Below, one piece after another: positions 1 to 20,000 of a stretch of DNA of 20,000 nucleotides (positions are counted from its first letter, which is position 1; the number at the start of each line of letters is the position of its first letter). The stretch covers positions 481,307 to 501,306 of the forward strand of contig JBEWZL010000030.1 of NCBI GenBank assembly GCA_045837725.1, given 5' to 3'. The notes below the pieces were generated by a model. That model made no database searches, was not told the origin of the DNA, and worked only from the letters and a program-made list of their open reading frames with translations. Made by a program: the position numbers and the translations under genes. The DNA is from Vermamoeba vermiformis (Eukaryota).

Positions 1-1558
1 CATTCCAAAACAAGACCGAGTTCTCACAACAGAAATACATCAAGAAGAAGCAAGAGAAGTACGTACCACTTCGTGCCTTGACATAAATTACTCACGCGTT
101 AATCGTGCGCAGATATCTTCATTACATCGAAGTCTTGCCGCCAACAACACAGACACTCACGAAAGTTTACTTCACGAAAGCACCCTCGAAGATATGGTAA
201 GCCTCGTGCAAGTGTTAAATGCAATGTTCGTTGCGAAATTCGAAAGCAGCACGAAGGAGAGAAAGAGAAAAGAAGACAAGCAAGGACATCGCATGCGACC
301 GATCTGGGCAGGACGTTGAGTTTGCTCAGCGACGAATCAACGATCGCATCGGTGCCCGAGTTGGTCTAAGGGGTTGGATTAAGGCTCCAATATCTTCGGA
401 TGCAAGGGTTCGAATCCCTTCCGATGCAATACCTTTTTTATTTTTTTGACGAACCAAGCCCTTCTCTTTCTCTCCTTCCGTTTTTTGCCTCGGTGCTGCG
501 ATTGACTAATCCCTTTTTAGTTTCTTGCGCTTAGATTCCGTGAGTTACCTGCTTTCCATGGCTGAAATCCGATCCAAAAACCAGATTCTCGTTGTAGAGG
601 ATGCTATGGGTCTTATTGTTGGCTCAGCGGCTCAACGATTGAACGGTAAGTAGAGCTACATTTCCAATTTTCAATCGCTAAGCGGAGAGCTCAGGTCAAG
701 GACGGATCATCAACTGTTTCCTCGGCCAATCGCCAAACACTCCTATTGCCAGTATGTTTAATTTGAGCAAAGAACATGCGAACGTCATCGAGCACATTTC
801 TTTCAAACGCGTACACGAGCTCGCTTTTGGAGATCAAGCGGCTCCCGTCGAGATCAAGGAAGAAGAGCCCGAGGTGAAGATCGAAGATATGCAAGTAGAA
901 AAGAACCCAGAAGAAGAAGAGAATATCGATATTGAAGAGCCACATGAAGTGCAAGGTAAGTTTTATGCGTCGTGGGAAACGTTTCCCTTTTATGGTAAGA
1001 TCTAACCCTCGTTTGACAGAAGGTCAAGAAAAGAACAACACCGCAACCCGAGAAAGCAAACAAAAGGAGACTGAAGAACATTTGTTCGAAGGAGCTGACT
1101 CCCTGATTATTGCTACAACACGCGTTGACGTAAAATCATTGCTTCAAGCCACGTACCCTTTCTTAGTACCAGGCCAACCGTTCAGCATATATTCACCGTA
1201 TATTGAAGTACGCTATCGTTGCCTCTTATAATCAATACTAATCGATATTATCTAGCCTCTTGCCGTCTGTCACCAATGGCTGAAAGAGTCCGATACCGCG
1301 TTGAACGTAACGTTAGGCGAAACATTTTACAGAGAATACCAGGTACGTCATATTATCTTATTATATGTATTATGCGTTCAAGGACTGGAATAATTAAGTA
1401 AACAGGTATTGCCGCAACGCACGCATCCTTTAATGCGAATTCCCGCGACTGGAGGCTATGTTCTTACGGGCACTAAGATAATTAATAATCCGCCACCAGC
1501 TGCGAATACAAACGAAGCCGCATCGTCGGAGCCTAAGCAAAAGAAACAAAAAGTCTGA
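1..1558 (+). CDS. TRM6: tRNA (adenine(58)-N1)-methyltransferase non-catalytic subunit TRM6/Gcd10, 5'-partial, spliced. Exons: <1-58, 113-196, 521-645, 695-955, 1020-1207, 1256-1342, 1406-1558
   Basis: The spliced frame gives KTEFSQQKYIKKKQEKY...LRLDSVSYLLSMAEI...ILVVEDAMGLIVGSAAQRLNG...LVPGQPFSIYSPYIEPL...FYREYQVLPQRTHPLM..TGGYVLTG, motifs I recognise from Gcd10/TRM6. All six introns are GT-AG and phase-consistent. Stop TGA at 1556-1558. Confidence 0.92.
346..428 (+). tRNA. tRNA-Leu, anticodon AAG, inside a TRM6 intron
   Basis: Acceptor stem GCATCGG(346-352)/CCGATGC(421-427), discriminator A428. D-arm contains AGTTGGTCTAAG. Anticodon stem TTGGA/TCCAA with loop TT-AAG-GC (AAG at 381-383). Long variable arm ATC-TTCG-GAT. 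T-arm AAGGG-TTCGAAT-CCCTT. Confidence 0.96.
434..447 (+). terminator. RNA polymerase III T-run terminator of the tRNA gene
   Basis: TTTTTTATTTTTTT begins a few nt after the tRNA 3' end. Confidence 0.8.
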
Positions 1559-7750: not shown

Positions 7751-8608
7751 ATGAATATTAGATGCAGTGGTGTTTGTTCATACCTTCGTTTGAGACGAGT
7801 CGGTCGACTGTTCAAGCATAAATTTTGTGCGGGCTCAATTCTCAATGTGCAGCAAAATGAGTACAACGAACAACAACATGTAAGTAACTCTGCATTACAT
7901 TGGATATTTATACGTGTATAATATTATTAACCAGGCTTACCAGGTCAAGAACTGCTAATTTCAAGCTTCAATCTCGATGGGACGACGTCGGTCAGTTGAA
8001 ACGCAGCTGGATTGCACTTAACACGCCAATGGTATGATATTTACTATGTATGCATTAAATTATAAGCAATGAGTCAAATTCATTCATTCGAATTACTTTT
8101 TGGTCGTTTGATCTTGCGATCGAGAAATTAAAATTTCAGTTAGTTAATTTTTACTAATTTTGCCAATAGTGCCAATAATATACTCAATGTAAACATCGGT
8201 TAGGATAATTTCCTCTAGCACAATGGTAAAGTTTTTTATTTGCAAATCTGCCGTTACTAATCCGTTGTTTTCAGTCCGTCCGAGTTAGCTAGCTAATGCC
8301 TTCGCTGACCCATTCCCTTGCTAGAGCAGAGTCCAACAACACATCCGACCTTAAGGCCCTTCGCTCGATCCGCTTTTGGCGTTGAAGCATCGCGTAAGTG
8401 TCTGTTTTGTATTTACCCTATAACAACCACTTTATTAATAATTCCTTTTAGATCATCAAGTCACAGCGACATCCAGCCAAGATCGGCGAAGTAGTGGATC
8501 TTCGGGTTAGGACTTTGTGCGTGCAGTTACACCTTCAACTTAGCCGCACACAAAGTCCTAACCCGAAGGTCCACTACTTTGCCGAAGTCATTTTGTAAAA
8601 CGAATAAA
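7751..8608 (+). ncRNA. Spliced, ORF-poor transcript inside the CACTA-ended element (candidate pri-miRNA or lncRNA)
   Basis: GT-AG introns of typical size at 7880-7934, 8032-8169, 8226-8274 and 8394-8451; branch-like CTAAT motifs are visible in the middle two. The best spliced ORFs are only about 40-50 aa. AATAAA at 8603-8608. Confidence 0.5.
8483..8585 (+). ncRNA. 37-bp near-perfect hairpin, pre-miRNA/hpRNA-like
   Basis: 8483-8519 TCGGCGAAGTAGTGGATCTTCGGGTTAGGACTTTGTG pairs with 8549-8585 CACAAAGTCCTAACCCGAAGGTCCACTACTTTGCCGA. Both non-Watson-Crick positions are G-U pairs on the + strand. The 29-nt loop region is partly pairable. Confidence 0.7.
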
Positions 8609-18260: not shown

Positions 18261-20000
18261 CTGATCGGCTAAGTTATCCCACCAAATTTCTCGCAGCAAA
18301 TTTATTTGATTTAATTAACGTTTGAATATTTATTTATACTATAATTATCACGAGCCTAACGTCTATAATATATATTAACTAAATTTGAAACTATGCCGTT
18401 CTTTGTTTCTTCGGTTTAGAATTTTTACGCGAGATCTTGCGACCTCGCTTCCTCTTCAGCGGTGCTGGAGGTACCACTTCTGTTGTCATATTTTGATCAG
18501 TCTCATCTTCTTCAACAGAAGTATTACTTGAGCTTGAATAGTCACTGTCATCATCAAACTCTAGCTTTGATGCGGCGAACTTAGAAGAAATTTTGTTAGA
18601 TTATCCATCGATGCTCCGCTAAATAAGCAAGAAGGGTGTGATTCAGTACTTGAAGGCAACAATTAAGATATATGCTTATTATAGATTTATACACCCGAAT
18701 GATTTGCACCATTGCTGCAGCGAAAAAAATCTAAGAATCTAAACTTACTGATTCATCGTTCTTTTTCTGCTTTGGTATCTCAGCAATGGGGCCCACCCAC
18801 TCAGTAGGAAAATGAGTAGGATCATGCTTATGCTGCCTTGCCAAATTCGTGACAGCAGCAGCAAATCGAACAATGCTACTGAACCATTTGCGCTCGTGCC
18901 GATACTTGTGCAAAAACATACTGAAAAGTCTGCTGATTTCGCCGATCTCATCTTCAATAGGGCGCCTAACAGTTTCGATATTACTATTGATGAGCTTGTC
19001 TTCTTCAGTGAACACAGCGTTCTTTTTGTGCTTCCGCTTTGGCAGCCAAGTGCCAACGACTTTATCGTTTTCGATGCCAGTGTAACCTTTGTCCAGCACA
19101 ATGACGTCATCAGGTGACAAATGGGGCGTTATCAGAGGCATTGCTTCACGTAGTCTATAGATATCATGATGCGAAGCTGGCTTTGCTTCGCTGACGAATA
19201 AAAAGTCCTTTCGCAGATCTGCCACGAAAGTAACTTTCATACCTATTCCAGATTACAGATTAGTAAAGAAGTGATAATATATATTAAATCGACTTATAAT
19301 TTAGTTATACTATTATACTAATTCAAAGTGAATTACTTACTCCATGCCTCGTTTTTTTCGCTCCAAAAACCTTGATCTCCATGCTTTGAGTCTCCACGCC
19401 TCTTTTCGACAAGAAAGTCCTTAGCATCGATTACTAGAGTAGTCTTTGCAAGAGGGACTGGTGTTTTCGGTATCCCGTGCGAATGAGTTCGGCGGTACTG
19501 ATCTCGATCCGCGAACGAGTTAAACTTGACAATTTCGTTTGAAAATACGTCAAGGTAGAGAACCATCTTCTCAATAAGCTTGTTCATATGTGAATGAGGA
19601 TAATTATATAGCTTCTCTGAAATTAAATTGTCAGTATTGAAATAATTGAAATTTGGATGCGTTCTTGACTTACCGATAACGAGCTCAGACTGGTACTCGA
19701 CCATCCAAAACAAAAATAGAGTGATCACTTTGTTGTTTGAGATGCGGCCATGAAACACAATATGCTTATTTTGTTTCATTGATCGCACAAAGTAATCGCG
19801 GATCAGATCTAATACTGGACTCCCGATCCGACTCTTTAGAATTTCTTTCATAAATGCATAGTTTCGAATCTTTATAGGCTCCATTGTGATAACATAAAAT
19901 AATAAAATTGTTCATTGCTAATTGCGATTGTGAAATTTGGTGGGATGAACTATCCCGGAAATTCAGTTAACTTATCTCAAAAAAAGTTAAGTTATCCTTC
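18247..20000. mobile_element. IS5/PIF-Harbinger-type (DDE_Tnp_4) DNA transposon, ~1.75 kb, bounded by imperfect TIRs; right end at or just beyond the window edge
   Basis: GAAGGATATCTTAACT (18247-18262) matches the reverse complement of 19985-20000 (GAAGGATAACTTAACT) at 15/16. The inner block ATCCCACCAAATTTC (18276-18290) matches 19932-19946 perfectly. The left flank ends in TTAA. The element encodes a DDE transposase. Confidence 0.85.
18601..19884 (-). CDS. DDE_Tnp_4-family transposase with a putative N-terminal HTH; introns at 19673-19617, 19340-19243 and probably 18748-18619
   Basis: Motifs LVIDAKD, FWSEK..WS|MKVTFVAD, PASHHDI, IVLDKGYTG and NSNIETVRRPIEDEIGEI correspond to the IDGT / K / HD / DxGY / RxxVE pattern of IS5/Harbinger transposases. 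The 3' end is uncertain because of an in-frame TAA at 18601-18603. Confidence 0.88.

Follow-up and report, generated by a model that had tools for sequence, protein, structure and literature searches.

A tRNA gene that lies inside a spliceosomal intron, between two arms of complementary sequence, raises the question of whether the arms serve the removal of that intron or have arisen merely through local copying. Such a locus is present in the window analysed here (the whole stretch of 20,000 nt from Vermamoeba vermiformis), in a gene of the TRM6 family. A first-pass annotation had proposed that the arms loop out the tRNA as an RNA bridge, by which a short-intron spliceosome could tolerate a nested Pol III gene, and had named the termini of a small tRNA-carrying mobile cassette as the alternative. 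The evidence presented below points, tentatively, to a more modest role in splicing.

The intron and its tRNA gene

The part of the window that holds the intron has the following features.

113..196, plus strand: TRM6 (Gcd10p family) exon before the intron (RNA joints and open frame; 27 aa, no Pfam match)
197..520, plus strand: spliceosomal intron with the tRNA gene inside (324 nt, GT..AG, skipped in X1 and X3 contigs)
315..340, plus strand: proximal upstream region with CAA at 338-340, the likely Pol III start region
346..428, plus strand: tRNA-Leu(AAG) gene (ARAGORN; Rfam RF00005, 55.6 bits)
434..447, plus strand: Pol III-type terminator by its sequence, T6-A-T7
504..510, plus strand: branch-point motif, branch A probably 509; similar motifs occur in RNA-confirmed introns
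521..645, plus strand: TRM6 exon after the intron (PF04189 positions 185-223, E 1.2e-7; RNA pieces)

The intron at 197-520 is genuine. Exactly this stretch is absent from the contigs of two of the four runs, X1 and X3, which were taken as RNA by guess; their contigs skip GT..AG introns, and the public record does not class them as RNA. The other two runs (raw reads, more distant relative) contained no joint at 197-520. Pfam matches to Gcd10p/TRM6 continue in order across the intron, the exon that precedes 113..196 matching PF04189 positions 89-153. The 11 other intron forms present in RNA at the locus comprise nine of 48-64 nt, one of 93 nt and one of 359 nt, and the TRM6 intron is about six times the usual length.

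An intact tRNA within a spliced intron of a protein gene is what marks an intronic Pol III tRNA gene, and this is what the intron holds, together with an oligo-T terminator of its own and an upstream start motif. The tRNA-Leu(AAG) is identical across 11 copies fetched from the genome and in a relative. Over positions 1-1600 the tRNA alone reached the Rfam gathering score, and no snoRNA or other family was found in its flanks. Among 83 tRNA genes sampled from the genome, all have a T-run of at least four within 25 nt and 75 have a CAA within 12 nt upstream; since the T-run terminator is present in every one, the sampled genes appear, from their sequence, to be independent Pol III units. The Pol III transcript of the TRM6 tRNA most likely runs from about 338 to the T-run and would include neither arm. 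Elsewhere in the genome, a duplicated gene family (L008-L011) has a tRNA-Leu(AAG) about 85 nt downstream of the stop codon in every copy.

The arms and their predicted fold

The arms lie on either side of the tRNA unit as follows.

246..252, plus strand: outer 5' arm (7 nt; differs from the C306 copy by a compensatory change)
253..269, plus strand: inner 5' arm (17 nt, purine-rich)
462..478, plus strand: inner 3' arm (17 nt, pyrimidine-rich, lineage-specific)
479..492, plus strand: spacer bulged between the two helices (14 nt; haplotypes differ here)
493..499, plus strand: outer 3' arm (7 nt; its end lies 9 nt before branch A)

The inner arms form a perfect 17-bp inverted repeat (253-269 with 462-478) that encloses the tRNA-Leu and its T-runs, and a second, outer pairing of 7 bp joins 246-252 with 493-499. 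Both were correctly described at the outset, as was the position of the outer 3' arm, which ends short of the branch motif at 504-510 on the side of the acceptor at 520. The 17-bp repeat is beyond chance with low complexity kept in the shuffles. With the whole flanks dinucleotide-shuffled 20,000 times, it never appeared; with shuffling confined to the AG-rich and CT-rich tracts, at three widths, it was reached 1, 5 and 0 times per 20,000. Chance matching of low-complexity tracts, which the first-pass annotation had itself raised against its proposal, thus accounts for at most 5 in 20,000. The outer 7-bp helix alone is not significant (81 of 250 shuffles match it). A G-U-tolerant local alignment of fixed 150-nt flanks did not single out the locus (35 of 300 shuffles as good), nor did two whole-flank pairing measures place it high by energy or score; windowed measures ranked it high.

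Folding predicts both helices with a pair probability of 0.99, and the fold of the whole intron 197-520 has a z of -2.97. By a zipper-type measure, predicted helices of 16-17 bp and 7 bp lie between donor and branch point. The donor-to-stem distance is 49 nt for the outer and 56 nt for the inner helix. The inner helix ends 30 nt from branch A, giving a linker total of 86 nt; the outer helix leaves only 9 nt to branch A and a total of 58 nt. The earlier arithmetic of 49 + 21 = 70 unpaired nt is right, and can be set beside the 48-64 nt of nine of the 11 other intron forms. In the SND2 intron copies described below, the best helix leaves 110-136 nt between donor, stem and branch A.

A different fold is present further along the window at 8485-8583, a near-perfect hairpin of about 33 bp with a branched loop (z -13, 0 of 200 shuffles), which is possibly a microRNA-like precursor or a small fold-back element. 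On the minus strand, open frames at 18731-19252 and 19333-19911 resemble, by eye, a DDE transposase remnant.

The inverted twin and the history of the arms

The tRNA and most of its flanks recur nearby.

238..497, plus strand: block common to the SND2-intron twin (L004) and both C306 copies (88-90% identity)

Beyond the window, 1.7 kb upstream and on the opposite strand, the twin occupies a 359-nt intron of SND2/TMEM208, the head-to-head neighbour of TRM6, and this intron is spliced in all four runs. The shared flanks of the block extend over about 110-115 nt on the 5' side and 60 nt on the 3' side. Both copies of the block recur on C306, a haplotype-like second contig whose sequence is about 3% divergent in the two exons that were compared. 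The 3' flanks agree at 45 of 50 positions within C306, 32 of 51 within C30 and 26-28 of 50 across contigs; in this genome they cluster by haplotype, not by gene. At another SND2 intron (L012, 5557-5614), two 3' splice sites lie 8 nt apart, the far one being used in reads of the relative and the near one in X3.

The orthologous region of a relative was found in a metagenome (L116), with exons about 80% identical. Both of the corresponding introns there, of 320 and 304 nt, contain a tRNA-Leu but no arms; at L114, a tRNA-Leu follows an exon that, by eye, matches the L005/L006 host exon. The relative's twins have near-identical 5' flanks over about 90 nt, which are unlike those of this genome. Because the flanks of the twins are near-identical inside each species and dissimilar across species, recurrent gene conversion between the twins may be inferred, and would keep them alike. 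Local likeness of this kind extends to other tRNA genes, as 16 same-anticodon pairs lie within 25 kb of each other, and most have 35-250 nt of flanking sequence in common on one side or both. Such pairs on C98, C127, C215, C232, C244 and other contigs are often inverted and in introns of unrelated neighbours.

The history of the two arms differs. The sequence at 244-271 is kept in the relative, and its partner arm is missing there. The 5' arm is the best-conserved piece of the 5' flank between species (z 4.3-4.6 in three comparisons and 2.8 in a fourth); ordinary orthologous introns do not align between species in five of five cases. Hence the 5' block is old, and its 3' complement was either gained here or lost there; the conservation of the 5' arm without its partner also means that this arm may have another role. 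A 28-nt 5' arm compared with its own 3' flank was equalled in 0, 0, 12 and 0 per 500 shuffles for the four copies in this genome, all of which retain complementarity. The same 28-nt pairing is absent from the relative's two orthologous introns, where 493 and 430 of 500 shuffles were as good, and an 8-bp helix that the relative has beside its branch point is not significant (21 of 250 shuffles as good).

Evidence that selection keeps the pairing is mixed. Compensatory changes had been suggested as a check, and one change on both sides was found in the outer helix against the C306 copy, the inner helix showing one A-U pair replaced by G-U; the relative's orthologous introns have no such pairing to compare. 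Three of the four copies have breaks in the pairing that nothing compensates, and the perfect 17 bp is unique to the TRM6 copy here, the longest perfect match in the others being 8-13 bp. Between the TRM6 haplotypes, 22 of 24 paired 3' positions are identical against 18 of 28 unpaired ones (p 0.024), a contrast that rests on one of 120 equal alignments. It is weak or absent in the other two comparisons (p 0.15 and 0.71) and vanishes in a MAFFT alignment (11/24 against 16/29). RNAalifold on the four copies gave 2 of 77 pairs with changes on both sides and a covariation term of -0.31, from too few sequences to weigh.

tRNA genes in introns across the genome

The tRNA genes were collected by Rfam, DNA and pattern searches as a partial sample, the pattern count suggesting some hundreds genome-wide. 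Excluding the organelle-like contig C309, the arrays on C56, one call that was too long and any gene close to the end of a locus left 83 genes, picked without regard to splice sites. The excluded C309 loci (L026, L027) are dense tRNA clusters in a large inverted repeat. On C56, tandem units of 77-82 nt (L083, 1296-1567 and 5977-6392) each combine a GC palindrome, a tRNA-type B box and a T-run; ARAGORN did not call them tRNA, and from their sequence they are possibly arrays of short Pol III RNAs. Satellites of 45 nt and 50 nt lie near these arrays.

Donor motifs are enriched before the 83 genes on one strand only. GTAAG lies 40-160 nt upstream of 39 genes on the tRNA strand against 12 on the opposite strand (background 12.8%), and GTA[AC]G of 48 against 16 (background 22%); with one gene per flank cluster (56 clusters) the p values are 0.002 and 0.0003, respectively. 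The positional peak of the donor motif is found on the sense side only. By hand assessment, about 40-45% of the 83 genes are nested in introns in the direction of the host, and antisense nesting was not detected in this sample. A first intron classifier, which was noisy and missed the true TRM6 acceptor, placed 40 sense and 7 antisense of 84 above a score of 15. Antisense AATAAA in the terminators was considered as a cause of the sense bias and was found in only 13 of 83. A special tie between the tRNA and a tRNA-modifying host such as TRM6 is likewise unlikely, as the hosts include JmjC, RCC1, GLE1, decarboxylase and SND2 genes.

Forty nested tRNAs had donor and acceptor fixed by hand (two RNA-confirmed, the rest predicted, seven from a donor-biased search), in introns of 193-376 nt. 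With flanks swapped between loci as the control, arms at z < -2 were found in 6 of these 40 and in none of 35 non-intronic tRNA genes, 4.5% of control cells reaching that value. The intronic group has a mean of -0.56 (p 0.03), and p is 0.10 without two armed loci. In the suggested scan of other intronic tRNAs, arms do recur, including at a tRNA-Leu(CAG) in a glycine-dehydrogenase intron (L075, 1119-1454) where the enclosing arms are of unrelated sequence, but 34 of the 40 introns have none. The six armed introns comprise three TRM6/SND2 copies, the glycine-dehydrogenase intron and a further two that are weaker. All six belong to the 13 introns measuring at least 296 nt and none to the 27 shorter ones, by a cut made post hoc and with one acceptor among them uncertain; arms in themselves add to intron length, and long introns without arms measure 353, 368 and 376 nt. 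A partial duplicate of the L075 locus (L076) lies 18.7 kb away from it.

Translations of 64 exons, most without a Pfam match, gave matches ordered across the tRNA for JmjC, ornithine decarboxylase, GLE1 and RCC1 domains, and the tRNA introns that interrupt these domains, of 195-353 nt, have no arms. A folded tRNA brings its own ends together through the acceptor stem, and over 42 introns the predicted donor-to-branch distance was no shorter than in shuffles (27 against 25, p 0.65). In the TRM6 intron it was longer than in all 20 shuffles. RNA in general folds with its ends close together (PMC6193969).

Interpretation of the arms

The explanation favoured here, with confidence just short of even, is a lineage-specific helix resembling the zipper stems of yeast introns that gives modest aid to splicing. 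A self-contained Pol III tRNA-Leu gene sits within the TRM6 intron in the host's direction, like many tRNA genes here, and has an inverted twin in the SND2 intron; gene conversion, to go by the identity pattern, would keep the two alike. In this lineage only, the 3' flank has sequence complementary to a purine-rich stretch of the 5' flank that is older. Pol II would read through the tRNA unit, and the arms would pair in the host pre-mRNA and not in the short pre-tRNA. When paired, they are predicted to form helices of 7-9 bp and 13-17 bp with the tRNA unit looped out, leaving a predicted 58 nt between donor, stem and branch A. One dominant fold may thereby hold the donor near the branch point, as in a zipper stem, and the help to splicing would be modest and dispensable. 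Since many tRNA introns and the relative lack arms, these are not needed to tolerate a nested tRNA; they look like a recent local extra, not a requirement.

A neutral by-product is a serious contender, though it too falls clearly below an even chance. Here, a copy of the 5' flank in inverted orientation would have entered the 3' flank a single time, been carried to the twin by conversion and occasionally been made perfect again, and the helix, though it may form, would have no effect on splicing. Template switching near a tRNA gene is a possible source of such an inverted copy. The absence of arms in the relative, the twin flanks alike within and unlike between species, the lively local copying seen in the 16 same-anticodon pairs and the 34 of 40 nested tRNAs without arms all agree with this explanation, as does the finding that random flanks bring the ends equally close (the shuffles above; PMC6193969). 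Against it stand the confinement of arms to intronic tRNAs (6/40 against 0/35), the one compensatory pair and, in one comparison out of three, the fact that paired 3' positions are better kept than unpaired ones.

A wider form of the splicing explanation is unlikely. It holds that tRNA introns near 300 nt have repeatedly and independently evolved an enclosing helix, which aids splicing speed or the integrity of the tRNA-containing pre-mRNA, that tRNA genes enter almost only in the host's direction, and that conversion between inverted twins carries the helix to the neighbour intron.

The required RNA bridge, in which a short-intron spliceosome could not remove a tRNA intron without arms, is very improbable and already largely refuted. 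Part of the bridge idea is supported: a helix is predicted to form with the geometry of a zipper stem, all four copies are complementary, arms occur only in longer tRNA introns, and the 58 nt left between donor, stem and branch A can be compared with the 48-64 nt of most introns at the locus. However, arm-less tRNA introns of 195-353 nt interrupt ordered Pfam domains, 34 of 40 tRNA introns (193-376 nt) have no arms, the SND2 intron is spliced in all four runs though its best helix leaves 110 nt, the relative's predicted 320-nt TRM6 intron has no arms, and the donor-branch distance is not shortened.

Protection of the host message is equally hard to credit. The pre-mRNA is a possible substrate of RNase P/Z, and the arms might hold the cut halves together, the 5' flank might misfold the cloverleaf in the pre-mRNA only, or both. 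The strong sense bias of nesting would fit, and intronic 5' flanks slightly favour their own tRNA over other tRNAs in pairing (mean z -0.68, p 0.005), the non-intronic counterpart being -0.16 (p 0.45). Yet the predicted loss of the acceptor stem in context is equal for intronic and non-intronic genes (p 0.99), and most nested tRNAs are armless; the modelled evidence for masking of the tRNA by its 5' flank is mixed.

Finally, that the arms are terminal inverted repeats of a tRNA-carrying mobile cassette can be dismissed almost entirely: twin homology does stop at the outer 3' arm, but a genome-wide search with the 15-nt 5' arm motif (1 mismatch) returned the four twin copies and two chance-level matches elsewhere against 7 for the reversed control, no direct repeat or target-site duplication lies outside the arms in any of the four copies, the common sequence extends about 10 nt past the 5' arm, and both tRNA positions, being present in the relative, predate the arms. 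A MITE or TIR element was rejected as there are no dispersed copies sharing termini, matches beyond the four twin copies being at control level, and creation of the intron by a cassette was rejected as the twin homology falls short of the splice sites.

Comparison with known systems

The closest parallel is the zipper stem of Saccharomyces cerevisiae, for example in RPS17B, a long stem between donor and branch point in unusually long introns that is patchy across orthologues (Rangan et al., 2025, PMC12350175). In the predicted TRM6 fold, the stem between donor and branch exceeds the 6-bp minimum and starts no less than 10 nt from the donor, and narrowly misses the yeast-derived spacing rule (86 nt inner linker; outer helix 9 nt from branch A). 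The fold differs in that its predicted stem encloses an entire Pol III tRNA gene and is common to a twin intron. In zebrafish, (AC)n/(GT)n bridges are likewise complementary low-complexity tracts at intron ends (Lin et al., 2016, PMC4691745). Those are widespread and experimentally required; the TRM6 arms are a minority feature, of unique AG/CT sequence and known from sequence.

Intronic tRNA genes are best described in Caenorhabditis, where they make up 43-47% of tRNA genes (Sagi et al., 2016, PMC4999229, 47%; PMC3342880, 43%), a share like the 40-45% or so found here. The tRNA-host pairs are conserved across those species, as are three of three positions in the relative studied here. In C. 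elegans only 56% are sense to the host (PMC4999229), whereas the donor excess here is wholly on the sense side, and the host introns measure about 190-380 nt against about 50-65 nt for ordinary ones. The passages of these reports on intronic tRNAs describe no enclosing arms. Intronic splicing enhancers of the nimtRNA type (Hoser et al., 2020, PMC7722341) are similarly tRNA folds that could influence splicing, but they are mitochondrial look-alikes unprocessed as tRNAs, and the TRM6 intron holds a complete nuclear tRNA gene that has a terminator of its own. In the concerted evolution of tRNA genes, local copies are likewise kept similar by gene conversion (PMC4981973); here, about 90-115 nt of flank appear homogenised between introns of two unrelated neighbour genes.

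If the arms work, the locus would be a natural test of how spliceosomes for introns of about 50 nt face a nested Pol III gene, and the material for it exists: four copies with arms, an orthologue lacking them and dozens of controls that likewise lack them. With a sense bias so strong, unlike that of C. elegans, three matters become directly testable: collision of Pol II with Pol III, antisense poly(A) signals and the release of tRNAs from introns. Should the arms prove neutral, the twins would still be a plain instance of gene conversion acting between the introns of genes that are unrelated.

In the open-access literature searched, no paper was found that joins intronic tRNA, flanking inverted repeat and splicing, and none was found on sense-biased intronic tRNAs in a unicellular eukaryote. 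Intronic tRNAs at such a frequency are already known from C. elegans, and intron-bridging stems from yeast and fish. Within that literature, the new features are a predicted stem that closes around a tRNA gene, a sense bias close to complete among the nested tRNAs of a short-intron genome, and the probable flank conversion between the introns of neighbour genes.
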